Under the pieces are notes generated by a model. The model saw nothing but the letters and a program-made list of their open reading frames with translations, had not been told where the DNA came from and did not search any database. From assembly GCA_964244895.1 (NCBI GenBank), contig CAXTKV010000011.1:1-47411 (forward strand): 47,411 bases of DNA, read 5' to 3'. This DNA comes from an uncultured Deinococcales bacterium. Lineage in GTDB: Bacteria > Deinococcota > Deinococci > Deinococcales > JAAFIG01. The position numbers and the translations under genes were made by a program. This document shows, one piece after another, positions 1,210 through 47,227 of this stretch. Position 1 is the stretch's first letter, and every line of letters begins with the position of its first letter.

Positions 1210-1252
1210 CACCGTCCAGCACGCCATTCCTGGAATGGCGTGCTGGACGGTG
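1210..1252. repeat. intergenic CGT-N5-ACG dyad element (spacing 26; perfect 21-bp arms)
   Basis: CGTCCAGCACG / CGTGCTGGACG. Confidence 0.9.
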
Positions 1253-1311
1253 TTCTCGAGCAGATGGCGATCCCAAGGAGCTGCCTGAGGGTTTCTCGAG
1301 GAGCGCGGTCT

Positions 1312-3288
1312 TCAGCGCTCAGAGATGCGCAGGCCGTAAGCGATACGGCGGGATCGTCCGGCGGGCAAATCCAGATCCCACAGCGGCAACAGCACGGTGG
1401 ACTGGTAGCGCCGCTCGAAGTGATCGCCAATTTTTTCCAGGGTTTCGACCGGGTGACGCCACAACAGCACCTCGCGCCCATCGAAGTCGAAGGCGATCTC
1501 GAGGCCGAGCCATTCGTCCACCAGGGACGCGGTTTTGACCGCGCGGTGTTCCGCGATCTGCGCCAGCGGGCCAGCCTTGCGCCCGTCGATCACGGCGTAC
1601 CGGTCTTTTGACGCGCCGGACAGCAAACCGAAGCCCCACTCCGAGCCGAAGCGCGTGATCACGTCCACGTCGCCCTTGTTGGTGATGCGGTACTCGATCT
1701 CGAGCCGGGATTCCTTGTGAACCACCCGCACGGCCTTCTTGACCTCGACGGGCACGGGTTCACCGATCGGGCCGCGCACGAAACCGTCGCGCACCAGGGT
1801 CACGCGGTCGCGGTACTTGGAGGCCTCGAACGATCCGGTCGTGAAATCGCCCAGTTCCAGGTACGCGTTTTGGGCAAATTCCGCCAGGTCGGATTCCGCC
1901 CCGATGAAATGATCGATCAGCGCGCGGCGCGGGTAGGCGTCGTAGGTCGCGCCTTCGGGGTGATAGAACTCCGGTCTGCGCGTGAAGGTGTCCAGCAGGT
2001 TAAACGCGCGCGGTCGGTAATCGAGTTCGGTGATCGAACCGCCCGAGGACGGGTTCCAGTAGACGTTCATGGTGTGCGATTCCGCGATCACTTCCAGGGC
2101 GCTGTCGCAATCGAAATCCTCATACTCGATCTCGAGCCAGGCGTACTTGCGCGGTTCGATCGCGTTTTCGGCGTTGATCAAATTCGTGTAGGCCGCCGAG
2201 CGCAGGAAGTTGCGGTACACCCCGCCGGACGTGCCGTGCCAGTAGGTCACGCCCGTCTGAGCCCGCCACAAATGCGCGTGGGCTTCCTGCGGAGCGCGGG
2301 CGGTGGCCTGAAGCTTTCTGGACACGCGCGCCGCCCGGCGCGAGAGGTGATCGGCCTCCGGGTACTTGGTCAGGAACGCCCGCCACGAGCCGCCGCGCAC
2401 GAACGGTTCCAGCTTCGCATCCACCTGCGCACCCTCGAGCAATCGCGCCAGGTCGGGCGGCATCGTCCATTTGGCCAGGCGTTTGCTGGAACTTGAAGGC
2501 AAGTACGCGCATTGCACGGGCGGAAACGCCGCGATGGCGCTCGATACGGTCGAGGTCTCGAGCCAGTCGCGTGCTGCCGTGATGGCCTCGAGAAACTTTT
2601 CAAACCAGCCCGACCTGAACGCGTTCGGGCCGCCATCCAGCCCACCCAGCGTTTCCGCATCGAGCGCGACCGTCAGCAGACCGCCCAGCTTGGCGCGCTC
2701 GCGCAGACGGGCCATCACGTCCGGCAGGTTGGAAAACGGAATCAGCCGGATGAACTCCTGCGATGCCGGAACCACCGTGACCGCCCGCCCCTGGTCTTCG
2801 GTGCGCACCGGGCGCAACAGTTGCCGCGCCTCGAGCCCCGCCGCCAGGCACTGGCCCTCGTCCAGAATCGTGTACGAAAGGCCCGCATCCGCAATCAGCG
2901 TGGGAAACTGTGGTTCCCACGCGAATTCCGCCAGCCACGCGCCGTTCGGTGCGACCCCGAACAGCCTCTCGATCAGTTCCGACTGGTGCCGCATCTGCGC
3001 GACCGCATCCCGGCGCGGCACGAGCGGCAGCAAGGGCTCGAACATCGCGCCGCCGACCAGTTCCACCCGCCCAGCAACAACGAGCTTCCGAAGCGTACTG
3101 AGGGCTTCAGGAAGCCCCTCGAGCCGTTCGATCAGCGCCCCGGAATAGTGCAAGCTAACGCGCACGTCGTGCGCGTCTAGGGCGGCCAAGAGCGGCAAGT
3201 ACGCGCTTTCAAAGGCGCGATCCACGGCGTCCGAGAGGTTGCCGACGGGCTGGTGGTGGTGGATGCACAACGCCAGCGTGAGCTTCAA
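1312..3288 (-). CDS. GH57 alpha-amylase/4-alpha-glucanotransferase family protein
   Basis: HHHQPVGN, HYSG, GAWLAE, YWHG motifs; start placed at TTG 3288 after GGAGG. Confidence 0.85.
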   Translation of the reverse strand: MKLTLALCIHHHQPVGNLSDAVDRAFESAYLPLLAALDAHDVRVSLHYSGALIERLEGLPEALSTLRKLVVAGRVELVGGAMFEPLLPLVPRRDAVAQMRHQSELIERLFGVAPNGAWLAEFAWEPQFPTLIADAGLSYTILDEGQCLAAGLEARQLLRPVRTEDQGRAVTVVPASQEFIRLIPFSNLPDVMARLRERAKLGGLLTVALDAETLGGLDGGPNAFRSGWFEKFLEAITAARDWLETSTVSSAIAAFPPVQCAYLPSSSSKRLAKWTMPPDLARLLEGAQVDAKLEPFVRGGSWRAFLTKYPEADHLSRRAARVSRKLQATARAPQEAHAHLWRAQTGVTYWHGTSGGVYRNFLRSAAYTNLINAENAIEPRKYAWLEIEYEDFDCDSALEVIAESHTMNVYWNPSSGGSITELDYRPRAFNLLDTFTRRPEFYHPEGATYDAYPRRALIDHFIGAESDLAEFAQNAYLELGDFTTGSFEASKYRDRVTLVRDGFVRGPIGEPVPVEVKKAVRVVHKESRLEIEYRITNKGDVDVITRFGSEWGFGLLSGASKDRYAVIDGRKAGPLAQIAEHRAVKTASLVDEWLGLEIAFDFDGREVLLWRHPVETLEKIGDHFERRYQSTVLLPLWDLDLPAGRSRRIAYGLRISER

Positions 3289-3608
3289 GATTTCCCTCCA
3301 GGGTCGCGTACATTCAGTCCGGTATTGGCGATAACATTCGTGCAGCGCGAACGATTCCGAATCAAGGAATTGAGTGTACAACAGTGCGAGTTTGCTCGAG
3401 TCAAGTCGAAAATACATCGCCGCTCGAAATTCTGTGAACGTCAATCCCGATGACGGTTTCTCTGAAGGCGAAGCTACAAAATCGCGTCGCAGGGGCAGGT
3501 CGCAGACCTGCCCTTCCCTCGAGACGGTGCTGACGCGAGCGACCTTCTCTTCTCGAGTTCTCGAGGTTTACGGGCGCGTGCAGAAACCTTGACGCAAAAC
3601 AGATGTTC

Positions 3609-3715
3609 GTAGGGGCGCAATTCATTGCGCCCTGTGCGCGTCGAGAGGGCGCGATCAATCGCGCCCTCCAGTTGGCCAGATTTTTCGCGCGTCAACCTTT
3701 GCGAATGCCGCTGTA
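3609..3715 (+). repeat. GTAG-type REP doublet (REPIN-like) with conserved tail, copy A
   Basis: GTAGGGGCGCAATTCATTGCGCCC (3609-3632), inverted degenerate partner 3647-3670, tail matching the reverse complement of 32052-32095; related hairpin GGGCAGGTCGCAGACCTGCCC at 3493-3513. Confidence 0.75.
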
Positions 3716-3759
3716 GACGTAGCGCATCTCCGCTCGCGATCGAGCTTGAAACGCGAAAA

Positions 3760-3801
3760 CACCGTCCAGCACGCGAATCCTGAAACGCGTACTGGACGGT
3801 G
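3760..3801. repeat. dyad element (spacing 25)
   Basis: CGTCCAGCACG / CGTACTGGACG. Confidence 0.9.
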
Positions 3802-3804
3802 TTT

Positions 3805-5418
3805 TTACGACTGGACTTTTTCCACCTCGAGCGGAGGCGCGATCCCGTCACGCACGAGTTTGAACCCCAACCCGTCCGTCAGCGCGATAAAGCTCGCCTT
3901 GATCGAGTTGACGCCCGCACCAACGGTCGTCCATTGCTCCTTGCCATCCCCGAAGGTGATCAGCACGCGCACGCGCGCCGCCGTGCCGTGCGAACCTTCC
4001 AGCACGCGCATCCGGTAATCCAATAGCTGCACGTCCTTGAGGCTCGGGTAATGGCGTTCCAGCGCGATCCTGAGCGCCTTGTCGAGCGCGTTGACCGGGC
4101 CATCGCCGAGCGCCGCCGCGTGTTCGCGGGTCTCACCGACCCAGACCTGAACGCTGGCTTCGGCTTCCGTATCGAAATCCGCGAAGCTGTCGATCTGCGC
4201 GCGGAAGACGCTGACGTTGAAGAACTCCGCCTCGCCCTTGGCGGCCCGCAGGAGCATCATCACGCTGGCGTCCGCGCCCTCGAAGGTGAAGCCCTCGTCC
4301 TCGAGTTCCTTCAGTCTGGCGATGGCCTGCGCGACCGCCGGGTCCTTGCCGTCGAGCTTGATGCCGTACTGCGCGGCGCTGGCGACCAGGTTGCTGCGGC
4401 CCGCCAGGTCGCTCATCAGGATGCGCCTGGAATTGCCGATGGTGGCGGGTTCCATGTGCTCGTAGAGGCTGGGGTCGCGGTTGACGGCGCTGGCGTGCAT
4501 GCCGCCCTTGTGGGCGAAGGCCGAAGCGCCCACGAAGGGTTGCTCGTTGCGCGGCGTGCGGTTGGCGCGGGCATCCACGAAACGGCTCAGTTCCGTCAGT
4601 TTGGACACGTCCGGCACGCACTGCGCGCCCAGTTTGGCCTGGATGAGCGCGATAAAAGACACCATGTTCATGTTGCCCGTGCGCTCACCGACGCCGTTGA
4701 CGGTTCCCTGCACCTGCCGCGCGCCCGCTCGAACCGCCACCAGCGCGTTGCTGATCGCCATTTCCATGTCGTTGTGCGTGTGAATCCCGACCTGCACGCC
4801 CAGTTTGAGCGTTTCGCGGACGAGCACCTCGACCTCTTCCGGCAGCACGTCGCCGAGCGTGTCGCACAGCACCAGACAATCCGAACCTGCCCTGACCGCC
4901 GTCTCGAGCACGGACAAAGCGTATGCCGGGTTGTCGCGGAAACCCGCGAAGGCCAGTTCCGCGTCGAAGATCACCTCGCGACCCAACTTTTTCAGGTAGG
5001 CCACCGTGTCAAAAATCATCTCGAGGTTCGCTTCCAGCGGGATGCCCAGCGCGTGCGTGACGTGCTTGTCCCAGGTTTTGGCGACCAGCGTGACGACGGG
5101 CGTCTGCGCCGCCACCAGCGTCTGCAGGATCGGGTCATCTTCGCAGGTGAAGCCCTTCTGGCGCGTGAAGCTGAAGGCCGCCAGCTTCGCGCGCGTCAGG
5201 CTGACGGACTTCATGGCCTCGAAAAAACGCGCGTCCTTCGGGTTGGAACCCGGCCAGCCGCCCTCGATGTAGGCCACGCCGAACCGATCCAGCGCCCGCG
5301 CGATCTCGAGCTTGTCTTCCAGGGACAGGTTGAAACCCTCGCCCTGCGTGCCATCGCGAAGGGTGGTGTCGTAAATCGAGAGGCTCACCCCTTGGAGCGA
5401 ATTGCTAACGTTTGCCAT
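3805..5418 (-). CDS. cimA: citramalate synthase
   Basis: YDTTLRDGTQGEG, GGWPGSNPKD, AHKGGMH motifs plus C-terminal regulatory domain; AAGGAGG RBS. Confidence 0.9.
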   Translation of the reverse strand: MANVSNSLQGVSLSIYDTTLRDGTQGEGFNLSLEDKLEIARALDRFGVAYIEGGWPGSNPKDARFFEAMKSVSLTRAKLAAFSFTRQKGFTCEDDPILQTLVAAQTPVVTLVAKTWDKHVTHALGIPLEANLEMIFDTVAYLKKLGREVIFDAELAFAGFRDNPAYALSVLETAVRAGSDCLVLCDTLGDVLPEEVEVLVRETLKLGVQVGIHTHNDMEMAISNALVAVRAGARQVQGTVNGVGERTGNMNMVSFIALIQAKLGAQCVPDVSKLTELSRFVDARANRTPRNEQPFVGASAFAHKGGMHASAVNRDPSLYEHMEPATIGNSRRILMSDLAGRSNLVASAAQYGIKLDGKDPAVAQAIARLKELEDEGFTFEGADASVMMLLRAAKGEAEFFNVSVFRAQIDSFADFDTEAEASVQVWVGETREHAAALGDGPVNALDKALRIALERHYPSLKDVQLLDYRMRVLEGSHGTAARVRVLITFGDGKEQWTTVGAGVNSIKASFIALTDGLGFKLVRDGIAPPLEVEKVQS

Positions 5419-5504
5419 TTCAACCTCCTTCCGTAGATGCTCGAGATTGACCGTCCAGAACGAATTTCAAGGCTCAAGGATACACCGACCCGCCCGAGAC
5501 TTCG

Positions 5505-5554
5505 AGCCTCAGATGCGCTCGAGTTCCGCAGCCTCAGATGCGCTCGAGTTCCGC
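5505..5554. repeat. 25-bp exact tandem duplication covering cupin gene 3' end
   Basis: AGCCTCAGATGCGCTCGAGTTCCGC at 5505-5529 and 5530-5554. Confidence 0.9.
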
Positions 5555-5902
5555 GACGGTGCGCTCGTTCACCACGTTACCCGTGTTCAACACGGTCGAA
5601 GGCTCGATCAGCACGACCCAGACTTCTTCAGTGGCCTTCGGGCAGTGCTCGACCCCGCGCGGCACGATCAGGAATTCTCCAGGCTCGAGGTGAACGGTTT
5701 TATCGCGGAACTGCATCTGGAACGCGCCCCGCACCACGAGGAACATCTCGTCCTCATGCTCGTGATGGTGCCAGACGAACTCGCCCTGGAATTTCACCAG
5801 CTTGACGGCGGTGGCGTTGATCTCACCGACGATCTTCGGGCTGAAATGATCGGTGAAGGTGGCGAATTTCTCGTTCAGGTTGACCTTGTCTGGGCTCGAC
5901 AT
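5534..5902 (-). CDS. cupin domain protein
   Basis: GEFVWHHHEHEDEMFLV...VPRGVEHCP; TACAAT 6 nt before ATG 5902. Confidence 0.85.
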   Translation of the reverse strand: MSSPDKVNLNEKFATFTDHFSPKIVGEINATAVKLVKFQGEFVWHHHEHEDEMFLVVRGAFQMQFRDKTVHLEPGEFLIVPRGVEHCPKATEEVWVVLIEPSTVLNTGNVVNERTVAELERI

Positions 5903-5921
5903 GAGATCATTGTAGCAGGAA

Positions 5922-5973
5922 GACCGTCCAGGGCACGAATTCCTGAATCGCAGGAACACCGTCCCAGACGGTT
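5922..5973. repeat. dyad element (spacing 35)
   Basis: CGTCCAGGGCA / CGTCCCAGACG. Confidence 0.8.
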
Positions 5974-5974
5974 T

Positions 5975-6289
5975 TTATTCCTGCTCGAGCGGCGGAAAGT
6001 TCACGAACACCGTCTCGAAATGCTCCACGCGAGCGCCATTCCGGAAATGCCCGAGCTTCGATTTCCACGTCTCGAAGGCGGGCGATCCTCGGAACCCGAC
6101 CGTGTGCGCCTCGAGCGTCGTCCAACGCACCTCCATCACGTACCGACCCGGCGATTCCTGGCTGCGGTGCAGCGTGTGCCCCAGATAGCCGGGGCTCGAG
6201 CCGATCACGCTGATGCAGTCCTGCATGGTGGTCTCGAAGGTGTCCGATTCGGCGGGCTGCACGAAAAACTCCGCGATCTCGAGAATCAC
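5975..6289 (-). CDS. antibiotic biosynthesis monooxygenase (ABM) family protein
   Basis: ILEIAEF...PGYLGH...WTTLEAHTVGFRGS; GTG overlaps the racemase stop (GTGA). Confidence 0.8.
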   Translation of the reverse strand: MILEIAEFFVQPAESDTFETTMQDCISVIGSSPGYLGHTLHRSQESPGRYVMEVRWTTLEAHTVGFRGSPAFETWKSKLGHFRNGARVEHFETVFVNFPPLEQE

Positions 6290-6996
6290 GACCGCACCGC
6301 TTCCTTTCCCAGCGCGAAATCCACGGCGGCCACGGCGTGGATCGTGGTCGTGTCGAAGACGGGTACGCTGGAATCTTCCTGATTGACCAACAGCATGATC
6401 TCCGTGCAACCCAGAATGATGCCCTCCGCACCCCGCGCCACCAGATCCCGCATGATCCGCACGTACTCGAGCTTGCTCGAGGCTTCCACCCTGCCCTGCA
6501 CGAGTTCGTCGTAGATCACGCGGTGGACGATATCGCGGTCGGGTTTTTCCGGGACGATCACCTCGAGATCGTACTTTTCAGTCAACCGTCCCCTGTAAAA
6601 ATCCTGTTCCATCGTGAAACCCGTACCCAGCAACCCGATTCTCGCGATGCTTTGCGCTTTGACCCGTTCCGCCGTCGCATCCGCGATGTGAATCAGGGGA
6701 ATCTTCACGGCCTTCTCGATCCGGTGCGCCAGTTTGTGCATCGTGTTCGTGCACAGCACCACGCACTCCGCGCCGCCCCGCTCGAGCCTGACGGCGGCGT
6801 CCTCCAGAATGTTGCCCGCCTCGTCCCAGCGCTCAGCGTGCTGCAAACGCTCGATCTCGTGGAAATTGACCGTGAACATCAAACTTCGCGCGTTTTCGAG
6901 CGGATGCACGCGGTCGCGCACGGTTTCGTTGATGATCCTGTAGTACATCGCGCTCGATTCCCAACTCATGCCGCCGATCAAACCGATGACTTTCAT
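6286..6996 (-). CDS. aspartate/glutamate racemase family protein
   Basis: IGLIGGMSWESS, CTNTMH, ILGCTEI motifs. Confidence 0.9.
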   Translation of the reverse strand: MKVIGLIGGMSWESSAMYYRIINETVRDRVHPLENARSLMFTVNFHEIERLQHAERWDEAGNILEDAAVRLERGGAECVVLCTNTMHKLAHRIEKAVKIPLIHIADATAERVKAQSIARIGLLGTGFTMEQDFYRGRLTEKYDLEVIVPEKPDRDIVHRVIYDELVQGRVEASSKLEYVRIMRDLVARGAEGIILGCTEIMLLVNQEDSSVPVFDTTTIHAVAAVDFALGKEAVRS

Positions 6997-7643
6997 TCCG
7001 CCTCCTGGACGAACTTCATGAGTGGTCGCATGGCGCGAAAACTGTTCGTGACGTGCTCGAGCAACCCGTCAGAATCGAAGCTCATCGCGTCGAACGACCT
7101 GGAAACCGTGAAGTTCCTGAATTTCAGTAGCTCCGAACCGGAATCGAAACCTTTCGGGTAACGCTTGAGTTTGCGCTCCTCGTCCAGCCCGCCGAACTGC
7201 TCAATTAAGGTTTTGTTCTTCAGGAGCGCATCCGCCTTTTTAGGGTTCCCATAGATAAACCCTCTGATGGCCGCCAGTCTTTCAGGCCCCGGCATGTACA
7301 CGCCACCCGCCGCGATGGATTCACCCGGCCCGGAGATTTGAAAATAGTACACGGGGCCATCCGAATGCCGCCCTTCCGGGCTGATGGCCGCGCTGAAGGT
7401 CGTCTTGTACGGCGATTTATCGTGGCTGAAACGCGTGTCGCGGTTGATGCGGAACAGGCAATCCTTGGCCTGGATGCCCTCGACGCTCGAGTCGAAGCGG
7501 GCGGTTTCTTTAATCACCCCATCCACGAACCGCACGAAATCCTCGCGCAACACCTGATACTCGGCGCGGTGCTTGTCGAACCAGGGCTTGTCGTTGTTGT
7601 ACGAGAGTTCGACCAGAAAGCGCACCAGATGACTAAGATTCAA
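6993..7643 (-). CDS. DUF2461 family protein
   Basis: NNDKPWF, FRINRDTRFSHDKSPYKT motifs. Confidence 0.85.
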   Translation of the reverse strand: MNLSHLVRFLVELSYNNDKPWFDKHRAEYQVLREDFVRFVDGVIKETARFDSSVEGIQAKDCLFRINRDTRFSHDKSPYKTTFSAAISPEGRHSDGPVYYFQISGPGESIAAGGVYMPGPERLAAIRGFIYGNPKKADALLKNKTLIEQFGGLDEERKLKRYPKGFDSGSELLKFRNFTVSRSFDAMSFDSDGLLEHVTNSFRAMRPLMKFVQEAE

Positions 7644-7670
7644 GGTTCGTACCGTCCGTTCTCGTTAGAA

Positions 7671-7712
7671 CACCGTCCCAGACGCAATGCCAAGTATGCC
7701 CGCTGGAAGGGG
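7671..7712. repeat. dyad element (spacing 25, degenerate)
   Basis: CGTCCCAGACG / CCCGCTGGAAG. Confidence 0.65.
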
Positions 7713-7723
7713 TTATCGCAGCA

Positions 7724-9286: not shown

Positions 9287-9318
9287 CTGGCTCCTTTTGA
9301 TTCGTGAGACTCAGGGGA

Positions 9319-9370
9319 TTGCGTCTGGGACGATATTTTTTGATCTCGAGAATATGCGTACTGGACGGTC
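9319..9370. repeat. dyad element (spacing 35)
   Basis: CGTCTGGGACG / CGTACTGGACG. Confidence 0.8.
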
Positions 9371-9457
9371 TTCTCGAGCGTGAATCACGGTAGTCGTTCG
9401 GAGAGAACCCGCTCGCGGATTGTACGAATGTCGATCATCTCAATCCTTTCCGACAAC

Positions 9458-9482
9458 AAAAAACCCTCGAAGCTTCGAGGGT
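9458..9482 (-). terminator. leuA attenuator terminator
   Basis: ACCCTCGAAGCTTCGAGGGT palindrome followed by a T-run on the minus strand. Confidence 0.8.
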
Positions 9483-9504
9483 CACGCGACAAGCGAACAA
9501 ACGC

Positions 9505-9564: not shown

Positions 9565-9572
9565 CTGGAACC

Positions 9573-9602: not shown

Positions 9603-9607
9603 CCGCG

Positions 9608-10615: not shown

Positions 10616-10640
10616 TTTTCACCTCTGACCAATTCTAGCC

Positions 10641-11832: not shown

Positions 11833-11888
11833 TTATACCAGTTCAGGGTGCATCACAACGCGTTCTCGGGATGAGCACGCGCCGAGAA

Positions 11889-11931
11889 TACCGTGCTGGA
11901 CAGGGTTTATTGAATTGCGAGCCAGACGGTG
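11889..11931. repeat. dyad element (spacing 26, degenerate)
   Basis: CGTGCTGGACA / CGAGCCAGACG. Confidence 0.7.
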
Positions 11932-11984
11932 TTTCCTCGAGCCGGGCGCGCATGCCGAGAACGCGTTGCACACCAACAAAACGT

Positions 11985-12548: not shown

Positions 12549-12571
12549 GCTCGGATTCCTCTTTGCAGGAT

Positions 12572-12623
12572 CACCGTCCTGGACGCACTTTTTCGAGATT
12601 GAAAAACGCTGTCCTGGACGGAG
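12572..12623. repeat. dyad element (spacing 35)
   Basis: CGTCCTGGACG / TGTCCTGGACG. Confidence 0.85.
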
Positions 12624-12634
12624 TTCTCGAGGGC

Positions 12635-13529: not shown

Positions 13530-13534
13530 GCAAG

Positions 13535-13587
13535 CACCGTCCTGGACGCACTTTTCTCGGATTGCAGGAACGCCGTGTAGCACGGTG
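13535..13587. repeat. dyad element (spacing 36), between ilvB and ilvN
   Basis: CGTCCTGGACG / CGTGTAGCACG. Confidence 0.8.
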
Positions 13588-13614
13588 TCCCCGCAATCCG
13601 ACTCCGGGCCGCAC

Positions 13615-15709: not shown

Positions 15710-15836
15710 GCGAAACCGAACGTTGCGCCCTCAAATATCCACGTTTTTTCGCGTTTCCGACGGCGTTCTCGAGCATTTGGCACCGTCGAGTGTCAGGTCT
15801 GGATGACGGCCTCTCGCTCGAGTCTTTTATCGTGAA

Positions 15837-15888
15837 GACCGTCCAGCACGCGAGATTTGAAAGTAAAAGAACACCGTGCTGGACGGTG
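15837..15888. repeat. dyad element (spacing 35)
   Basis: CGTCCAGCACG / CGTGCTGGACG. Confidence 0.9.
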
Positions 15889-15914
15889 TTCTTCTGAGCG
15901 ATTCGGGTATGTTC

Positions 15915-16883: not shown

Positions 16884-16984
16884 ACAGGCCTCCTTGAAGT
16901 GTTGAAACGAGCCCGACTCTACGCCCGGACGCCAGAAGTGCGACGGAACGTGAGGCACATTGCCAGCCGAATACACCTCGAGAA

Positions 16985-17026
16985 CGCCGTCCCGCACGCA
17001 TGCGTTAAATCGCGTCCAGGACGGTA
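16985..17026. repeat. dyad element (spacing 25)
   Basis: CGTCCCGCACG / CGTCCAGGACG. Confidence 0.85.
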
Positions 17027-17050
17027 TTCTCAAGCATCACGAATCCATTT

Positions 17051-19431: not shown

Positions 19432-19473
19432 GCGCCCCAGAAGGCAATCTCGGGCCAGGTTGAATCTCGAGAA

Positions 19474-19514
19474 GACCTTCCCGCACGCGAATTAAATATG
19501 CGTCCTGGACGGTC
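19474..19514. repeat. dyad element (spacing 24)
   Basis: CTTCCCGCACG / CGTCCTGGACG, flanked by CTCGAGAAGA...TCTTCTCGAG. Confidence 0.85.
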
Positions 19515-19595
19515 TTCTCGAGCTATTTCGGGTCAATCGCGCACGGTACGAGAACCGTCTCGAGCCGATGCCCGAGATCCGATCTCGAGGCGAGT

Positions 19596-21575: not shown

Positions 21576-21795
21576 CTTTCGGTGCGCGGCTGGCGCGGTG
21601 TCCGGATTGAATTCAATGTCAGAACGTTCGTACTGGCGTGCTCGAGAATACGCGCTCGGGATGGTTCGTTCGGGTTCCTCTCATGTATTCGTCCTGGGAC
21701 GATCTTGGCGGGGCAAGCCAGGTGACTGCGCTCTCGAGAAACCCTCAGCCCATCCTGCCGCGCGAGGTCTGTGGTCGCGCGCGGTCTCGAGAAAA

Positions 21796-21837
21796 CACCG
21801 TCCGGTACGCATGTGCAAATACGCGTGCTGGACAGTG
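21796..21837. repeat. dyad element (spacing 25)
   Basis: CGTCCGGTACG / CGTGCTGGACA. Confidence 0.85.
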
Positions 21838-22036
21838 TTCCCATGCGTGACCCGTTCGAGCAAACCATCACCTACCCCGGTTATCCGTGCGCACCAGAAT
21901 AATCCGGTATCCCGATCAGCAAACGCCCGCACGGATCAAGGTCGAGCATGTCCGCGCCGAAAGCGTTTGACAAGTGGGCTTCCAATTCTTAGATTGCACC
22001 CGAACCCCTCGAGCCATCCGCACAGATCGGAACCCC

Positions 22037-22717: not shown

Positions 22718-22736
22718 AGGCGAGCAATCTCGAGAA

Positions 22737-22778
22737 GACCGTCCAGCGCACGAATCAAATCTCGCGTGCTGGACGGTC
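22737..22778. repeat. dyad element (spacing 25)
   Basis: CGTCCAGCGCA / CGTGCTGGACG. Confidence 0.85.
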
Positions 22779-22883
22779 TTCCTGAGACACTCGATAAGCC
22801 TGGCTCGAGATACGCAGGCCGGGCGCGACGGGTCAACGCAACGAAGGTTGGGGGCGCGAACACAAAAGTTTGTAGGCTCAGGT

Positions 22884-24044
22884 GTGAACGAATTGCACGC
22901 CTCGAAACTGGCACAAGCGCAGAGAATGCTCCAGCCCGGTCAGGTCTGGCTGATCGCGGCACGCGAGAGCCTGGAGCGACCGGAACCCGGCCTGAGGCTG
23001 GTGGTCGGTGCGCACGTCACCTGGGATTCTTTTTTCCTGGTGACGCGGGACGCCGCCATCGCCATCGTCGGGCGCTACGATGCGGAATCAATCGGCGCGC
23101 CGTGGCGCACGATTCCTTACGACGAGGACGCTGGCCCGGTTTTGCGGGCGGAACTGAGGGCGCTCGAGCCGCAAACCGTGCTGCTCGATTTCTCGAGCGA
23201 CGACCCCTTGTCGGACGGCTTGACGCACGGCCTGTACCTGCGCTTGATCGAACTGCTGCCGGACGTGAAGTTCTCGAGCGCTTCAGGTTTTCTGGGTTCT
23301 CTGCGTTCCCGCAAAACCCCGATGGAACAGGCCGCCATTCGCGAGGCCGTAAACCGCGCCGAGGCCGACCTGAACGCGATGGTGAACGCCATTCGGGTCG
23401 GCTGGTCCGAGCGCGACGTGGCGCGGTTCCTGCACGAACGCCTGCGCGCGGACGGCTGCGAGCCATCGTGGGGCTGGGAGGGTTGCCCGACCGTCAAGAT
23501 TGGGCCGGTGCAACCGTCCCACGCGGGGCCGACGGATCGGCAGATCAGGCCCGGCCTGTTCATGCACATCGATTACGGTGCGCGCATGCCGCACGGCTAC
23601 TGTTCAGACATTCAGCGCGTGTACTACTGGCCAGAACCCGATCGGGACGACATCCCATCCGAACTCGAGCGGGCGTTCAAGGCGGCCTGGGACGCCATCG
23701 AGGTCGCGTCGCAGGTCTTGCGTCCCGGCGCGCAGGGTTTCGAGGTGGACGCCGCCGCCCGCGCCAGCCTGGTATCGGCGGGCTACCCGGAGTACATGCA
23801 CGCCGTCGGGCACGGCCTGGGGCGCGCCACGCACGACGGCGGCACGCTGCTCGGCCCGAGGTGGGCGCGGTACGGCTCGAAACCCGATGGGATCGTCGCT
23901 GAGGGCGAGGTCTACACGCTGGAATTGGGCGCGTTCGTCGAGGGGTTCGGCTACGTGGGGCTCGAGGAGGACGTGGTGGTGCGCATGGATGGCGTGGAAT
24001 GGTTATCGGACCGTCAGAACGCGATCCGAATTCTGGGACGCTGA
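22884..24044 (+). CDS. M24 (Xaa-Pro) family metallopeptidase
   Basis: IDYG..GYCSDIQR, HAVGHGLG, LEEDVVV motifs; TAGGCT 5 nt before GTG. Confidence 0.88.
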   Translation: MNELHASKLAQAQRMLQPGQVWLIAARESLERPEPGLRLVVGAHVTWDSFFLVTRDAAIAIVGRYDAESIGAPWRTIPYDEDAGPVLRAELRALEPQTVLLDFSSDDPLSDGLTHGLYLRLIELLPDVKFSSASGFLGSLRSRKTPMEQAAIREAVNRAEADLNAMVNAIRVGWSERDVARFLHERLRADGCEPSWGWEGCPTVKIGPVQPSHAGPTDRQIRPGLFMHIDYGARMPHGYCSDIQRVYYWPEPDRDDIPSELERAFKAAWDAIEVASQVLRPGAQGFEVDAAARASLVSAGYPEYMHAVGHGLGRATHDGGTLLGPRWARYGSKPDGIVAEGEVYTLELGAFVEGFGYVGLEEDVVVRMDGVEWLSDRQNAIRILGR

Positions 24045-24048
24045 AGAA

Positions 24049-24100
24049 CACCGTCCCGGACGCGAATCTGAAGGCTCGAGAAACGTCGTGCTAGACGGTC
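24049..24100. repeat. dyad element (spacing 35)
   Basis: CGTCCCGGACG / CGTGCTAGACG. Confidence 0.85.
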
Positions 24101-24166
24101 TTCTCGAGTGGCACCAGCCGGAATCAACGAACCGAATTTCTCGAGCCGTGACCGTCTTCTCGAGGC

Positions 24167-25597: not shown

Positions 25598-25873
25598 GGC
25601 CAAAGAAACCGGATTGCTGCGCGAGATGATTTCGTACTGTAGACCATTCCAAAAAAACAGGGCGCGAACGAGATCGCCCATCCAACCGTGAGGCTCGAAA
25701 GATGGCGTCCGAGACGATGCGCGCGTCTCGATTCCAATCGGTTCAAACCCTTTTAAATGAGCTTGATGTGAAACGCCTACGATTTCCTCAGATCCCTCTC
25801 GGGCGGCGCAGACCCGGTCGACGCCCGAAAACTGATCGATCCCCGGCGACAAACCGGGGATTTCGCCTGAAAT

Positions 25874-25916
25874 CATCGTCCGGCGCGCGGTCCAAAGAAT
25901 GCCGTCTGGGACGGTG
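25874..25916. repeat. dyad element (spacing 26, degenerate)
   Basis: CGTCCGGCGCG / CGTCTGGGACG. Confidence 0.7.
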
Positions 25917-25935
25917 TTCTTTAGCTCAGATCGCG

Positions 25936-26953: not shown

Positions 26954-27005
26954 CACCGTCCCGGACACGGTTTTCTTGGTCGCAAAAACACCGTCCCAGA
27001 CGGTG
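26954..27005. repeat. dyad element (spacing 35)
   Basis: CGTCCCGGACA / CGTCCCAGACG. Confidence 0.85.
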
Positions 27006-27041
27006 TTCGCCGGGTATGCCACCTCGGGGTAGACTGTCGCG

Positions 27042-28352: not shown

Positions 28353-28457
28353 AGCGCCTCGAGAAACCCGCGCTGTATGCCACGCCTCGGGCGCACCCGA
28401 TCGGAGGTGCTCGCTCGAGATGGCACGCGGGCACAGATACGGTTCGCCCTGCGAGAA

Positions 28458-28499
28458 CACCGTCCGGGACGCAGTTTCAAACTCGCGTCCCGGACGGTG
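28458..28499. repeat. dyad element (spacing 25)
   Basis: CGTCCGGGACG / CGTCCCGGACG. Confidence 0.9.
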
Positions 28500-28561
28500 T
28501 TCTCTCCGAGGGACGCTGGCACTCGAGCGCGTACCGGGTTCGACCTGACTTCTGACCGCCC

Positions 28562-29816: not shown

Positions 29817-29858
29817 CACCGTGCGCGACGAAATGCGATAAATTCGTGCTGGACGGTG
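29817..29858. repeat. dyad element (spacing 25)
   Basis: CGTGCGCGACG / CGTGCTGGACG. Confidence 0.8.
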
Positions 29859-29883
29859 TTCTCGCGTGAAGATCGGCTTAACG

Positions 29884-31071: not shown

Positions 31072-31108
31072 GCCACGAGTCTACCCGTTCGGGTTCGTTC
31101 CCCCAGGA

Positions 31109-31161
31109 GACCGTCCTGAACGCCATTTCTCGAGATTCAAGGAAGATTGTCTGGGACGATG
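31109..31161. repeat. dyad element (spacing 36)
   Basis: CGTCCTGAACG / TGTCTGGGACG. Confidence 0.75.
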
Positions 31162-31201
31162 TTCATGGGCGCAGATCCTCGAGAAGGGTTAGCCTCTGGG
31201 C

Positions 31202-32158: not shown

Positions 32159-32237
32159 AAAACCCGTTCCACAGGGGCAGGTTGCGACCTGCCCTCCCCA
32201 GAAACACCGTGGCTATTTCTGCGCGAGACTCGAGGAA

Positions 32238-32289
32238 CACCGTCCAGCACGGTATCCTCGAGCATCAAGTATTCACGTCCAGGACGGTC
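32238..32289. repeat. dyad element (spacing 35)
   Basis: CGTCCAGCACG / CGTCCAGGACG. Confidence 0.9.
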
Positions 32290-32313
32290 TTTCGCCTTGT
32301 GCCCCGACCAAAA

Positions 32314-37166: not shown

Positions 37167-37174
37167 CGCCAGAG

Positions 37175-37216
37175 CACCGTCCAGGACGCACTTTAAGATT
37201 CGCGTCCTGGACGGTA
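37175..37216. repeat. dyad element (spacing 25)
   Basis: CGTCCAGGACG / CGTCCTGGACG. Confidence 0.9.
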
Positions 37217-37291
37217 TCCCCGTGAACCCAAGGCTTGGGAGCCATCCGAACCGCGAGCGAATCGATCTCAAAATGATTCCGGAAAGCCCCG

Positions 37292-38992: not shown

Positions 38993-39049
38993 ATTTCCTC
39001 CCGATGCCCGAGCCTACCGCACGCGTTGAGGCTTCTCAAGCCTTAAGAA

Positions 39050-39101
39050 GACCGTCCAGCACACGTTTTTAGCATCGCAGAAATTGCCGTCTGGGACGGT
39101 C
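39050..39101. repeat. dyad element (spacing 35)
   Basis: CGTCCAGCACA / CGTCTGGGACG. Confidence 0.85.
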
Positions 39102-39238
39102 TTCCCGAGAAACCACGTCACGCCCGAAAACGCAGTCCCACGATCCAGTGCAAAGCCTTCTTGGTGGACGCGCAAACGGCGTTCCCGAAAACCGGGAACG
39201 CCGTCCATTCAATGCTCGCTCGAGAAACCCTTCCAGCA

Positions 39239-43112: not shown

Positions 43113-43226
43113 GGTACGCCCTCCTGATTGAAGATTGTTTCGTGCCTCGTGGGAGCGTCTATTGTCACGACCGGGGCTTCAGGCGAGGTGTTGCGGCCTC
43201 GAGTTCAGGTCGAGGCAGACCACGAA

Positions 43227-43268
43227 GACCGTCCGGGACGTGAGCTTTTATTTGCGTGCTGGACGGTG
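43227..43268. repeat. dyad element (spacing 25)
   Basis: CGTCCGGGACG / CGTGCTGGACG. Confidence 0.9.
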
Positions 43269-43270
43269 TT

Positions 43271-44377
43271 TTATGGCAAGATCAAGTGCAGATCGCCGAA
43301 CTCGTGCCAGAGGTACGCACCCTCGAGCGCAGCCCGGTACGCGACCTCGAGGTGACGCCGTCCCGCGATGGCCTCGAGCATGGCCAGGTGCGTGGCCTGT
43401 GGCTCGTGCCAGCCCGTCAGGATGCCGTCCACCGCCCGCACGCCGCGCTGCGGGGTGACGATCAAGCGCGTCCAGCCCTCGCCGGGATGGGTGGTTCCGC
43501 CCGCGTCGGTGACGGTCTCGAGGGCGCGCACGCAGGTCGTACCGACTGCGATCACGCGCCGACCATCACGGTGCGCCTGGTTGACCGCGCGGGCGGTTCC
43601 GGGCGGCACGCGGTAGAACTCCTCGAACGGCGGTTCGTGGTCTTCGAGGGAAGCGATCCCCGTGTGCAGGGTGATCGGTGCGACCACCACGCCGTGCGCC
43701 ACGAGTTTCGTGATCAATTCGCTGGTAAAAGCGCGCCCCGCTGATGGCATTTCGGCGCTGCCGGGTTCGGTGGCGTAGACCGTCTGGTACGCGCTGATCG
43801 GCCATTCGTGCGGCACGTATGAATAGCGAATCGGCTTGCCGTAGCGCTCGAGATACGAAACGAGCGGTTCGGGTCGCTCGAGAATGGCCAGCCACAATCT
43901 CGAGCCGCAGCGCGTGGGCGCAGCCGTGCGATCCATTGCATACGGCGCGAGGATGCGAGCCTTCGCACCGCCGGGCAGCGACAGCGTTTCGCCTTCAGTT
44001 GCATCGCGAAAGGCTTTCGTGGTGCGTCCGTCAGGGCTGCGGAGTTCAACCGTCCAGATGTCGGCGGGCAGGTGCGTCGAAAGGTGCATTTCCAGCTTCG
44101 TGCCGTCCGCGCGCGTCGCGGGCAGCGCGGCGGGCAGCGTACCGGAGGTGTTGATCACCAGCGCATCGCCGGGTTCGAGGAAGCTGGGCAGGTCGCGGAA
44201 GCGCGCGTGAACCACGGTGTCGTCGCGTCGACAGGTGACCATCAGGCGCACTTCGTCGCGGGCCAGACCGCGCGCCTCCGGCGGTTCGGTGGCCTCGAGT
44301 TCCGGCGGCAAGGTGAACTCGAGCGTTTCGATCTGAAACGCGGCTGGCGTGTTCACTCGTGATGGCGCGCGCATCAC
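43271..44377 (-). CDS. QueA-like S-adenosylmethionine:tRNA ribosyltransferase-isomerase
   Basis: YQTVYA..GSAEMPSAGRAF, AVGTTCVRALE, WHEFGD motifs. Confidence 0.85.
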   Translation of the reverse strand: MMRAPSRVNTPAAFQIETLEFTLPPELEATEPPEARGLARDEVRLMVTCRRDDTVVHARFRDLPSFLEPGDALVINTSGTLPAALPATRADGTKLEMHLSTHLPADIWTVELRSPDGRTTKAFRDATEGETLSLPGGAKARILAPYAMDRTAAPTRCGSRLWLAILERPEPLVSYLERYGKPIRYSYVPHEWPISAYQTVYATEPGSAEMPSAGRAFTSELITKLVAHGVVVAPITLHTGIASLEDHEPPFEEFYRVPPGTARAVNQAHRDGRRVIAVGTTCVRALETVTDAGGTTHPGEGWTRLIVTPQRGVRAVDGILTGWHEPQATHLAMLEAIAGRRHLEVAYRAALEGAYLWHEFGDLHLILP

Positions 44378-45960: not shown

Positions 45961-45967
45961 GCGAAAA

Positions 45968-46019
45968 CGCCGTCCCACACGTATATTCTTGAGCCTCGAG
46001 ATTCGCGTGCTGGACGGTG
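45968..46019. repeat. dyad element (spacing 35)
   Basis: CGTCCCACACG / CGTGCTGGACG. Confidence 0.85.
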
Positions 46020-46028
46020 TTCTCATCG

Positions 46029-46658
46029 TCAGTACCACACGCCGACGGCCTGTTGGTGGTACTTCGCCTCGCTGATCTCTCGGGCAAGGAAATCGGCCAC
46101 ATCGTGCGCCGAAATGATCTTGAAGCCGCCGGGAAACTTCCCCGTCTCGAGGTGGTATTTCCCGGTGTGGGCGCCGTCGTTGATGTACGGGCAGGCGGCC
46201 AGCGCATAATCCAGGCTCGAGTTGGCGACGATCTCGTAGGCGTACTGGTGGTCGGTGGCTGCCGCGATGAATAGCCTCACGAAAAACAAGGAAATCGCTC
46301 CAGCCGGGGTCGAGGGCATCTGCGCGGTTCCGCTGACGCCCAGGTAGCGGGTCAGTCCGGCAGATTTCATGGCCGCCACGATGACCTTTACGCTGTCCCT
46401 CACGACCGTCGAGGCTTTCAAGGGGTTGGCGCCGACGGCCATCACGACCGCGTCGAATCCCGCCTCGAGCGCCCTTGAGACGCTTTCAGGATCGGTCGTG
46501 TCCCCCTGCACGACGCTCAGGTTGGCGTGACGCAGGGTGACTTTGGCTGGCGTGCGGGCGAACGCTGTGACCCGATGGCCCGCGTTCAGGGCGTACTCGA
46601 GGACGCTCGCACCGACCCGACCTGTAGAACCGAAGACGATGACACGCTGGCTGCTCAT
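46029..46658 (-). CDS. NAD(P)H-binding (BVR-B-like) oxidoreductase
   Basis: VFGSTGRVG, ISAHDVA motifs; GGAGG RBS. Confidence 0.85.
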   Translation of the reverse strand: MSSQRVIVFGSTGRVGASVLEYALNAGHRVTAFARTPAKVTLRHANLSVVQGDTTDPESVSRALEAGFDAVVMAVGANPLKASTVVRDSVKVIVAAMKSAGLTRYLGVSGTAQMPSTPAGAISLFFVRLFIAAATDHQYAYEIVANSSLDYALAACPYINDGAHTGKYHLETGKFPGGFKIISAHDVADFLAREISEAKYHQQAVGVWY

Positions 46659-46712
46659 GGGTTAACCTCCGATATTCAAGGACGAAGATATCTTGAAGCT
46701 TGGAGATACTTT

Positions 46713-47180
46713 ATGTTTCGAGATACAAAATTGCAAGCAGCCAGCCGAAAACCCCAACACCGCACGCCGCTCCACAGCTTCCACGCCGCCGTCATGCGCC
46801 AGATCATCGGCGACCTGTCCGTCACAATTCAGCAATACGACCTGACACCCGCGCAACTCTCGACCCTGTTTCGCCTGCGCAGTCAGGGCGCGCTCGGCGT
46901 TACAGCCATCTCGGAACAACTCGGCCTGAGTTCCGGCACGACCAGCCACCTCGTTGAACGGCTCGTTCAACGCGAACTCGTAATGCGAACCGAACACCCC
47001 CTGGATCGTCGCGGACGAGAAATCAGCCTTTCGCCGACCGGACAGGAATTCCTGACGGCCTTCGACACGGAACTCAACCGATCCCTGGAGCAACTCGTCC
47101 GTCAGGTTCCCCCGGATTTGCTCGAGCGCCTGACCGAAGTGCTGCGCGAGGTCTTACCGCACCTGACGCAACCGCATTGA
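46713..47180 (+). CDS. MarR family transcriptional regulator
   Basis: LTPAQLSTL..LVERLV..DRR..LSPTG; start uncertain; imperfect palindrome 46689-46708 in the divergent gap. Confidence 0.85.
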   Translation: MFRDTKLQAASRKPQHRTPLHSFHAAVMRQIIGDLSVTIQQYDLTPAQLSTLFRLRSQGALGVTAISEQLGLSSGTTSHLVERLVQRELVMRTEHPLDRRGREISLSPTGQEFLTAFDTELNRSLEQLVRQVPPDLLERLTEVLREVLPHLTQPH

Positions 47181-47185
47181 AAAAA

Positions 47186-47227
47186 CACCGTCCCACACAC
47201 AAATCGTAAAACGCGTGCTGGGCGGTG
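47186..47227. repeat. dyad element (spacing 25)
   Basis: CGTCCCACACA / CGTGCTGGGCG. Confidence 0.8.

Follow-up and report, generated by a model that had tools for sequence, protein, structure and literature searches.

The window, that is, the whole stretch of 47,411 nucleotides analysed here from an uncultured Deinococcales bacterium, contains 45 called genes, 38 of them with Pfam support, and 25 dyad elements (Table 1). A sequence-only reading of this DNA had described 25 intergenic copies, 14 with boxes 24-26 bp apart and 11 with boxes 35-36 bp apart, and our analysis confirmed every one of them in its position and its distance, all 25 falling between called genes. An nhmmer profile trained on copies from across the genome (E<=0.01) found exactly the same 25 loci and zero extra. 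The strict pattern ACCGTCC-N20-40-GGACGGT occurs nine times in the window, compared with 0.01 +/- 0.10 times in 100 shuffles, which excludes a chance origin of the dyads. Three copies contact a stop codon (3752-3807, 5916-5976 and 24042-24108).

Table 1. Dyad elements of the window, all of them doublets. Each row is based on a coordinate check, the profile scan and the measured box distance.
Position	Form	Box distance (bp)	Context and remarks
1205..1260	short	26	flanked by two minus-strand genes; RNA MFE -46.7 vs -17.3 shuffled
3752..3807	short	25	right end meets stop of HMGL/LeuA-like gene 3805-5388 (-)
5916..5976	long	35	second box a full palindromic unit, then TTTTT; meets stop of gene 5975-6289 (-); sole terminator-like element in 1-20000
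7666..7714	short	25	right box degenerate; folding no better than shuffles
9322..9378	long	35	spacer with CTCGAG
11882..11937	short	26	degenerate; ilvC / GNAT gene gap
12566..12631	long	35	GNAT gene / 109-aa ORF gap; spanned by contig of ~91%-identical relative
13530..13593	long	36	occupies ilvB/ilvN gap; ilvN GTG start adjoins element end; same genes overlap (ATGA) in G003, G007, G006
15830..15895	long	35	aldo-keto reductase gene stop 24 nt before
16977..17034	short	25	
19466..19522	short	24	
21790..21844	short	25	divergent gap
22729..22786	short	25	ThuA-like gene stop 17 nt before; spanned by relative's 18-kb contig
24042..24108	long	35	convergent gap; overlaps stop of gene 22884-24044
25869..25924	short	26	
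26954..27010	long	35	divergent gap; full unit as second box
28451..28505	short	25	near-perfect palindrome; convergent gap; MFE -46.1
29817..29866	short	25	divergent gap
31103..31168	long	36	second box degenerate; spacer with CTCGAG
32231..32293	long	35	convergent gap; spacer with CTCGAG
37169..37224	short	25	convergent gap; stop 6 nt before
39043..39109	long	35	
43220..43272	short	25	adjoins stop of queuosine-synthesis gene
45961..46025	long	35	fills convergent gap, 5 and 7 nt from the two stops
47179..47234	short	25	MarR gene stop 3 nt before

The RNA energy of each window copy was compared with that of 30 mononucleotide shuffles, and it lay more than 3 SD below the shuffles in 16 of the 25 copies and not so in nine. 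The arm mismatches that had been taken to argue against a hairpin do occur often, but the majority of copies fold in spite of them. As had been claimed, the elements do not qualify as canonical intrinsic terminators: one of the 11 elements at 1-20000 passed a hairpin-plus-T-tract scan, U-tracts and T-rich flanks were absent from the elements, and canonical terminators with a T-tract occur elsewhere in the window. The earlier argument against an RNA hairpin is also supported in that selection on a sense-strand hairpin left no sign, with no bias between G:U and A:C mismatches on the sense strand of the arms (432 vs 461, p=0.35) or across the whole half-element of the short form (607 vs 628). The orientation of the spacer relative to transcription is random (59 vs 57).

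Unit, registers and subfamilies

The repeat is built from a perfect palindrome of 25 nt, AGAACACCGTCC-N-GGACGGTGTTCT, in which the central base is free. Most copies join two of these units head to head in either of two registers, which place the dyad centres 25 or 35 bp from each other, and are 53-63 bp long. Unit, doublet and composite forms are all present. The inner halves of doublets have their own consensus, G-c-ACGC-aTTt, systematically unlike that of the outer halves, and conservation peaks at the outer ends of the element and declines inward.

A genome-wide count restricted to 11-mer boxes (CGTCC...ACG followed by CGT...GGACG, pairs within 80 bp) gave 684 pairs, of which 379 lie at 24-26 bp and 258 at 34-36 bp, so that two spacing classes are real and sharp. 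The peaks at 25 and 35 are those that had been expected. A minority of 20 pairs lie at the half-turn distance of 30-31 bp (3%), seven at 41 and one at 46, and a further class at 45, which had been thought possible, is missing from this count (0/684). Half-site distances peak at 10 (469), 35/36 (680/94) and 45/46 (266/106); the short form corresponds to L-35-R and the long form to L-45-R, together with L-46-R.

The long register is longer by ~10 nt and carries CTCGAG at a fixed spacer offset in 97/203 L-45-R and 38/75 L-46-R copies against 48/632 short copies; this motif is exact and stands at either of two mirror-image offsets. The spacer of the short form has an asymmetric consensus. The earlier description of the spacers as non-conserved thus needs correcting, and adding a ~10-nt CTCGAG segment to the short form would give what is seen in the long form. 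Box-type frequencies also depend on the class, the CAG type occurring in 22/203 long and 17/632 short copies, and nearest-neighbour distances are lower than in a column-shuffled null (6.93 vs 7.77+/-0.04; 12.0 vs 13.8+/-0.08). The arms of the short form covary, with complementary box triplets in 274/632 copies where 149 are expected; box types on the arms of the long form are independent (40/203 complementary, 30 expected, p=0.58). At most positions of the arms, single mismatches occur roughly as often as expected under independence. We consider it likely that the two box spacings are two subfamilies and not helical phasing, a rule that had been proposed from the 10-bp quantum: the ~10-nt segment could account for the step, box types differ between the classes and the 45-bp class is missing. 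Nearest copies differ at ~14% of positions, chiefly within the spacer, and conservation at the non-ascertained arm positions ACGC is 88-98%, a pattern that a recent neutral burst does not predict.

Placement and lineage distribution

The genome has 2,246 loci, which make up 2.5% of its DNA. Only 85 have their midpoint inside a called gene, and 96% of copies across the genome are thus intergenic. About half of the intergenic regions are occupied (1,962/4,083). Regions with 0, 1, 2 and 3 copies number 2121, 1866, 93 and 3, where a uniform null gives 2466, 1243, 313 and 54 and a length-weighted null 2818, 815, 276 and 97, so placement is much more even than insertion at random would give. More than one copy is found in only 96 of the about 1,962-2,059 occupied gaps, and there are no tandem arrays. 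Occupancy is highest in convergent gaps (445/606, 73%, against 1241/2858 tandem and 276/619 divergent) and does not increase with the length of the gap. Of the convergent gaps whose other DNA amounts to 20 nt or less, 84/100 hold a copy, and in those where it amounts to at least 300 nt, 55% of the copies are found no further than 25 nt from a stop codon as opposed to 10% under uniform placement. The median distance from stop to element is 19 nt for the short form, 22 nt for the long form and 35 nt for the single unit, with the next start ~100 nt away, and the outer palindrome overlaps the stop codon in 131/915 cases. The near-single copy per intergenic region, the occupancy of convergent gaps and the strong pull towards stop codons are unusual. 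The first and the last of these give support of a descriptive kind to the proposal that the elements mark gene boundaries. Orientation shows no bias with GC skew or gene strand, in a comparison of low power.

Strict matches number 886 in the genome under study (G000) and 0-2 in 30 relatives, and palindromic units 642, where 18 other genomes of its family have 0-1. Empty and filled sites, whose comparison had been suggested, are seen at ilvB/ilvN: the genes overlap in G003, G007 and G006 and are split by the element in G000. Judged from this junction, the element is an insertion relative to the sister genera. All nine elements spanned by contigs of a ~91-92%-identical relative are also present there. 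Target duplications of k=3-8 were sought at 14 boundary offsets and none was found at any boundary. CTCGAG adjoins ~14% of ends; it abuts one end in 169/628 short copies and both ends in six, where 13 are expected. The Y1/RAYT transposase (PF01797) has no match in G000 and has one in 16 of the 18 other genomes of the family. No GTAG was found beside the palindrome. A search of the assembly for a parent element or other long repeats found none, long repeats being nearly absent from it (17 pairs of at least 250 bp at >=85% identity).

Origin of the family

In E. coli, a BIME pairs a REP with an inverted REP; the linker between these palindromic units is short or long and less conserved than the units, and single units occur (PMC3333891, in part). 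The family described here is similar in its extragenic and mostly inversely paired units, in its short and long linker classes, less conserved than the units and with a conserved motif in one class, in having some singles and in its placement after genes; the E. coli elements are known to bind host proteins (same source). As far as that account goes, the two differ in that the unit is a perfect palindrome here and imperfect in E. coli, and in copy number, which is ~4 times the 584 REPs of K-12; in addition, the family has no tandem arrays, and neither a GTAG beside the palindrome nor a Y1/RAYT gene was found for it. The REPINs of Pseudomonas are inverted REP doublets with discrete spacings of 71 and 110 bp (PMC3116915, in part). 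They share with our elements the over-represented inverted doublets, few discrete spacings, extragenic location, existence of singlets and a spacer that is less conserved yet forms a hairpin. REPINs have RAYTs, however, are longer, and their doublets are described as randomly spread over extragenic DNA, some clusters being over-represented, unlike the distribution close to one copy per gap seen here. The SNRs of Deinococcus radiodurans, of which there are 295 copies of at least nine types, absent in a congener, are likewise lineage-specific noncoding repeats in the same order, but they are mosaic and ~8 times fewer, a comparison made by description and not by sequence (PMC1978522, in part). 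Because the architecture matches REP, BIME and REPIN families, the earlier exclusion of an ordinary REP fails. Correia elements of Neisseria and SMAG elements of Stenotrophomonas are very abundant intergenic palindromes with length classes set by an internal segment, co-transcribed with their neighbours, and resemble the present family in abundance, palindromic intergenic form and length classes. Correia elements differ in their TA duplications and their length of 100-155 bp, and we know of no report that either family obeys a one-per-gap rule.

We favour, at somewhat better than even odds (about 55%), the possibility that the window dyads are copies of a lineage-specific REP/BIME-like family of ~2,200 copies, which was likely spread in the form of mobile DNA able to fold into hairpins and would since have been kept at gene 3' ends. 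Abundance, unit architecture, subfamily signals, hairpin potential and arm symmetry support it, as do the gain in this lineage, the lack of duplications, the stability at nine of nine sites and the BIME and REPIN parallels. The family may have expanded in this lineage through cutting or copying of folded DNA, single-stranded or cruciform, by an enzyme of the HUH/Y1 type, which would leave no duplication and insert beside a short target, here CTCGAG. The two spacings would then be two replicating subfamilies, with no rule of helical phase behind them. Retention where harm is least or where the host gains modestly, perhaps at the transcript 3' end or in local DNA topology, would account for the conserved arms, the single copy per gap and the proximity to stops. 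The mobilising enzyme would be absent from the 91%-complete assembly. Against mobile repeats stand the regular placement, the occupancy that does not increase with gap length and is high in the tightest convergent gaps, the pull towards stops in long ones, the unbiased orientation, the independent long-form arms and the missing transposase, GTAG and parent element.

In a different, though unlikely, explanation the units would bind a dimeric protein as duplex DNA, the doublet being a site for a dimer of dimers, with one site per gene boundary for nucleoid organisation or topology, such as a gyrase or nucleoid-protein site easing supercoiling at transcription-unit ends. E. coli BIMEs are reported to relieve supercoiling at such ends, as gyrase or nucleoid-protein sites. 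The perfect dyad with its free central base, the sequence-specific conservation of half-sites, the near-independence of mismatches, the independent long-form arms, the lack of an RNA-strand signature, the single copy per region with convergent gaps foremost, and spacings about one helical turn apart with few pairs at 30-31 would all fit. In addition, BIMEs are binding sites for several proteins (PMC2817692, in part) and IHF binds the BIME-1 linker (PMC3333891, in part). However, the 45-bp class is missing, the 10-bp step goes together with the insertion of one particular segment, CTCGAG at a fixed offset, inner half-sites are systematically unlike outer ones, and short-form covariation and descent linkage among copies are not expected of sites evolved in place. 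No candidate protein was found, and the family is missing from sister genera although their housekeeping genes are the same; any protein partner would therefore also have to be new. The sequence-only interpretation, which had centred on such paired sites, is as a whole partly supported.

It is quite improbable that the elements are selected mainly as RNA, a 3' UTR hairpin blocking read-through or 3' exonucleases both ways, so that a single palindrome would serve both genes of a convergent pair. Proximity to stops compared with starts, its persistence in long gaps, the overlap with stop codons, the leading occupancy of convergent gaps and the strong hairpins of most copies speak for this, and in work by Liang, Rudd and Deutscher in 2015 E. 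coli REPs near stop codons reportedly affect translation and mRNA decay. Yet G:U and A:C mismatches are balanced, the T-tract is absent here and present in canonical terminators elsewhere in the window, spacer orientation is random, divergent gaps, which hold no gene ends, are occupied too, and copies lie within the ilvB-ilvN-ilvC cluster. An origin as MITEs derived from a DDE transposon, in which a full-length insertion sequence would encode the transposase and the 20-nt arms would be its terminal inverted repeats, we regard as very improbable. Conservation greatest at the outer ends, a burst confined to one lineage and two length classes, which some MITE families such as Correia elements have, would agree with it; target duplications are missing, no longer element with the same ends was found among the few long repeats, the doublets and the 25-nt unit would make unusually small MITEs, and the interior is not clonal. 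Two clonal MITE subfamilies had been named as an outcome contrary to the sequence-only reading, and two subfamilies with a conserved interior, here the likely reading, agree with that outcome in part, but without target duplications.

The single units are complete, with perfect dyad symmetry and a consensus that is theirs alone, unlike the decayed doublets of the REPIN model (PMC3116915, in part) and not as spread by mobile repeats would suggest.

Palindromic units in two registers

The sequence-only reading had listed 25 copies of an intergenic dyad in the window, and every one is present. A profile built on genome-wide copies (nhmmer, E<=0.01) returned the same 25 loci and no others. Measured from box to box, the box being the 11-nt core, the copies fall into two spacing classes as claimed, of 24-26 bp (n=14) and 35-36 bp (n=11), and all 25 are intergenic by codon-usage gene calls. 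These calls come from our own crude codon-usage caller, which places 4,411 genes over 81% of the source genome; Pfam supports 38 of the 45 genes called in the window. Nine matches to the strict pattern ACCGTCC-N20-40-GGACGGT lie in the window, where shuffled sequence would give 0.01, and Rfam at gathering thresholds has no match there. In the draft genome (5.12 Mb, 328 contigs, 62.7% G+C, 91% completeness) the profile scan finds 2,246 loci, which make up 128 kb or 2.5% of the sequence, a density of about 0.44 copies per kb, with 48% of intergenic regions occupied. The intergenic preference extends to the whole genome, since the midpoint lies inside a called gene for just 85 of the 2,246 loci.

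The outer half-sites of the element, ACACCGTCC and GGACGGTGT, occur 3,257 and 3,248 times in the genome when up to one mismatch is allowed. Measured from each left site to the right site that follows, distances peak at 10 (n=469), 35/36 (680/94) and 45/46 (266/106), with just 1-2 counts at 55/56. The peak at 10 corresponds to a single unit, AGAACACCGTCC-N-GGACGGTGTTCT, which is a perfect 25-nt palindrome; 165 such units are solitary and further ones lie within composites. The base 3' of the inner ACG works as a switch. With G the sequence continues as GTGTTCTT, giving the full unit, and with C it continues as aatTtt..GCGT, giving a doublet, that is, two units in one of two registers whose inner halves have a separate consensus. 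The doublets are thus of a short form (L-35-R, boxes about 25 bp apart) and a long form (L-45-R and L-46-R, boxes about 35 bp apart), and because of this anatomy the boxes first described are the cores of palindromic units. A dyad-symmetric unit with conserved half-sites, a feature expected of paired operator sites, is present. The family is also, as REPs are, a short extragenic palindrome in more than 100 copies, whose units are mostly paired inversely at set spacings across a linker that is less well conserved.

The spacers, which had been described as variable, are not random. The short-form spacer has an asymmetric consensus, so the element has an orientation, and the long-form spacer carries CTCGAG. 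Of the L-45-R copies 97 of 203, and of the L-46-R copies 38 of 75, have the exact hexamer at either of two offsets that mirror each other; in the short form it is found in only 48 of 632, at the exact centre. When oriented by this hexamer, the long form reads GAACACCGTCCaGcACGCg.TTTCTCGAGAttcAAaAat.GCGTgCtGGACGGTGTTC, which amounts to the short form with about 10 nt added.

Helical phasing of the two spacings had been proposed, with a possible third peak at about 45 bp. In a genome-wide histogram of the 11-mer boxes alone (684 pairs at most 80 bp apart) there are peaks at 24-26 bp (379 pairs) and 34-36 bp (258), seven pairs at 41 bp and none at 45 bp. The gap between the classes is empty in the window, while genome-wide 20 of the 684 pairs are 30-31 bp apart. 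The peaks at 25 and 35 and the scarcity at 30-31 agree with phasing; the lack of a 45-bp class, and the coincidence of the step with a specific inserted segment, do not. The CAG box type is present in 22 of 203 long and 17 of 632 short copies, and copies are closer to their nearest neighbours than under a column-shuffled null (6.93 vs 7.77+/-0.04; 12.0 vs 13.8+/-0.08). Judged from these sequence comparisons, the difference in box types between the classes and the closeness of neighbours are signals of subfamilies and descent. Together with the CTCGAG segment of about 10 nt and the missing 45-bp class, they make the 10-bp step explicable without helical phasing, though phasing may still contribute.

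Gene gaps, insertion and lineage

Copies lie just downstream of stop codons: the short form at a median distance of 19 nt, the long form at 22 nt and single units at 35 nt, with the next start about 100 nt away. Stop codon and outer palindrome overlap in 131 of 915 cases, and TAA is enriched there. Where a convergent gap holds at least 300 nt of other DNA, no more than 25 nt separates 55% of copies from a stop, where uniform placement would give 10%; for tandem gaps whose other DNA amounts to 300-500 nt the figure is 33%. Occupied gaps number 445 of 606 convergent, 1,241 of 2,858 tandem and 276 of 619 divergent. Occupancy is level across gap lengths, and 84 of the 100 convergent gaps with at most 20 nt of other DNA contain a copy. 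The numbers of gaps with 0, 1, 2 and 3 copies are 2121, 1866, 93 and 3, compared with 2466, 1243, 313 and 54 under a uniform null and 2818, 815, 276 and 97 under a length-weighted null; these counts depend on our own gene calls, in which missed genes would add multi-copy gaps, not mask them. This regularity of one copy per gap is the most unusual feature of the family. It could result from a host function, from a single preferred target in each gap or from collapse of nearby copies by slippage.

The family is restricted in its distribution. The strict doublet pattern has 886 matches in the source genome and 0-2, the control level, in 30 relatives from the same family or order, none of the same genus. 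The unit, at up to two mismatches, has 642 and 0-1 matches respectively in the source genome and across 18 genomes of the family. One true short-form copy was seen in G005, a genome from a different genus in which the repeats are otherwise lacking (see table). This could be a stray contig, the genome having 6% contamination, or a rare shared copy.

A comparison of empty and filled sites, as the sequence-only reading had suggested, was possible at ilvB/ilvN. The two genes overlap as ATGA in three relatives of other genera (G003, G007 and G006), and in the source genome the element occupies an 85-nt gap. The GTG start of ilvN directly adjoins the right arm, and any ribosome-binding site must therefore fall within the element. 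In the GNAT-ilvC gap the alignment to G003 and G007 is too diverged for insertion boundaries to be placed. Metagenome contigs searched with IlvN gave 12 loci with a best identity of 82%, and so contain no same-genus relative for such comparisons. In a relative about 91-92% identical, represented by contigs from two public DNA runs, nine of nine bridged window elements are kept. The same relative has two additional stretches (see table): 92 nt that could be an element of its own, and about 1.7 kb that could hold an additional gene.

Two clonal MITE subfamilies with target duplications had been named as evidence that would count against the sequence-only reading; direct repeats at the element ends are no commoner than in shuffled sequence (k=3-8, 14 offsets), which speaks against a DDE-type MITE. 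CTCGAG adjoins one end of 169 of 628 short copies and both ends of just six, against 13 expected.

In members of another genus of the family (loci L003, L007, L010 and L011) the ilvB-ilvN gap is 90-230 nt long and is filled by other palindromes, rich in G+C, whose ends read CCCCTAC; this is complementary to a REP signature of the GTAG type. Since these differ from the palindromes described here, each lineage of the family appears to have palindromic repeats of its own.

Coordinates of individual features (in the window unless a genome is named)
Feature	Position	Strand	Remarks
ilvB/ilvN element	13526-13617
Hairpin with T-tract	15554-15581	-	11 pairs, then TTTTT; in 615-nt gap upstream of ilvB
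Element near this hairpin	15830-15895		about 250 nt from hairpin
Element	26957		in stretch without alignment to relative's long contig
Element	28461		in stretch without alignment to relative's long contig
Abutting, element-free convergent junction	30775/30776		92 extra nt in relative's 18-kb contig (~92% identity)
Element	37178		in stretch without alignment to relative's long contig
Segment of 154 nt	37166-37320		about 1.7 kb in its place in relative's contig
Animal haem peroxidase domain protein, 547 aa	39242-40882	-	PF03098, E 5e-25
Short-form copy in G005 (locus L031)	G005:C557:1640-1712		CTCGAG-flanked

Transcript-level tests and candidate origins

The RNA folding energy is more than 3 SD below shuffles for 16 of the 25 window copies and not so for the other nine. 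The variable box triplets are complementary between the arms in 274 of 632 short copies (149 expected) and in 40 of 203 long copies (30 expected, p=0.58). For most of the remaining arm positions, the frequency of single mismatches is about what independence would give. No RNA-level selection is seen in mismatch types (432 G:U vs 461 A:C on the sense strand, taking tandem gaps in the orientation of the upstream gene; p=0.35), in spacer orientation, which is random relative to transcription (59 vs 57), or in T content, the downstream flanks being 20-23% T and not T-rich. A scan for hairpins followed by a T-tract in window positions 1-20000 flagged one of 11 elements; with the composition of the flanks, this indicates that the elements are not canonical terminators. 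Their exclusion as canonical terminators was thus justified: the hairpin is present and the T-tract absent, and canonical hairpin-plus-T-tract sites occur elsewhere in the window. One such hairpin, upstream of ilvB (see table), could act as an attenuator in an ilv leader or be where the upstream gene truly terminates. The form in which the elements are recognised may be duplex DNA, a cruciform or folded single-stranded DNA.

The Y1/RAYT domain (PF01797) has no match in the 91%-complete source assembly and is matched in 16 of the 18 other genomes of the family. From their sequences, six relatives' Y1 loci look like IS200-type TnpA, and around the Y1 genes of four relatives no element-like inverted repeats were found. 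Self-BLAST of the draft assembly for a parent element gave 17 repeat pairs of at least 250 bp, none with the element's ends, and almost no long repeats. The orientation of asymmetric copies has no association with GC skew or gene strand (Fisher p 0.08-1), at low power. The attC, Xer/dif-like and uptake-sequence candidates were dropped on anatomy alone (housekeeping context, no matching core sites, near-absence from genes).

In E. coli, BIMEs are described as a REP and an inverted REP joined by short or long linkers, one class of which is conserved; the same account counts 84 single REPs among 584 and makes the system dependent on the tetranucleotide GTAG as well as on a Y1 transposase (PMC3333891). 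Pseudomonas REPINs are described as inverted REP doublets with discrete spacings (71 and 110 bp) and a less conserved spacer, their doublets random across extragenic space and their singlets decayed remnants (PMC3116915). For D. radiodurans, one genome study gives 295 mosaic small noncoding repeats and places none in D. geothermalis (PMC1978522). The present family is similar in architecture to all three. We consider the elements to be REP/BIME-like palindromic repeats in a variant form, with a probability of about 0.55. This reading fits best, and the dismissal of an ordinary REP in the sequence-only reading does not stand. The family departs from REP/RAYT systems in that GTAG is absent 5' of the palindrome foot, where the flanks are c.cgAG or CTCGAG, and in that no cognate Y1 transposase is found in the assembly. 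It further differs from REPs and REPINs in its perfect-palindrome unit, in single units whose own consensus is a full perfect palindrome, where REPIN singlets are decayed, and in its distribution of one copy per gap. If the REP-like reading holds, this is one more such family, whose chief use is as a very dense case without a detected RAYT, relevant to how repeats of this kind are maintained or propagate when the usual transposase is lacking.

The regular, near-saturating distribution beside stop codons is not like the outcome of random selfish insertion, and it makes this genome suitable for testing a host role of REP-like repeats at the ends of transcription units. That the units are sites for a putative duplex-binding protein at gene boundaries is, going by sequence features, rather unlikely. 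Slightly less likely again is the more specific idea that the palindromes have been domesticated to mark gene boundaries and are read, as duplex or cruciform DNA, by a putative host protein that insulates neighbouring transcription units. One palindrome would be placed per intergenic region, beside the stop codon and common to both genes where they converge; the reader could be, for example, a topoisomerase or nucleoid protein, and the 25- and 35-bp registers would hold both dyads at equal rotational phase. If true, an architectural code spanning the genome would have arisen inside one genus-level lineage.

CTCGAG and other observations

Within the papers searched, the unit and arm motifs gave primer-like 10-mer matches only and the 15-mer palindromes none. 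The exact 19-nt unit occurs in at least 46 stretches of public genome contigs; the matches listed are single, chance-like ones in unrelated taxa, plus an AT-rich MAG with a short palindrome of its own. In this unrelated candidate-phylum MAG the 19-nt core, as TTACACCGTCCSGGACGGTGTAA, has four matches on three contigs (L033, L063 and L073) in AT-rich, intergenic-looking DNA. As their flanks are unrelated to those in the source genome, convergence or chance is likely.

No description of CTCGAG as a highly iterated palindrome was found in the literature searched. CTCGAG is the commonest hexamer of the source genome, with 21,883 copies; its density is 3.8 per kb within genes, where 73% are in frame as CTC-GAG, and 6.4 per kb in intergenic DNA. 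All genomes of the family, the source and 18 others, have 12,000-35,000 copies, and GAGCTC is nearly absent from them (0-25 in most genomes, 568 in the source genome); in the order's other families the counts are 128-7,001 for CTCGAG and 62-2,162 for GAGCTC. CTCGAG is thus an iterated palindrome family-wide, combined with avoidance of the reversed word GAGCTC. The window also encodes an animal haem peroxidase domain protein (see table), a domain uncommon in bacteria.
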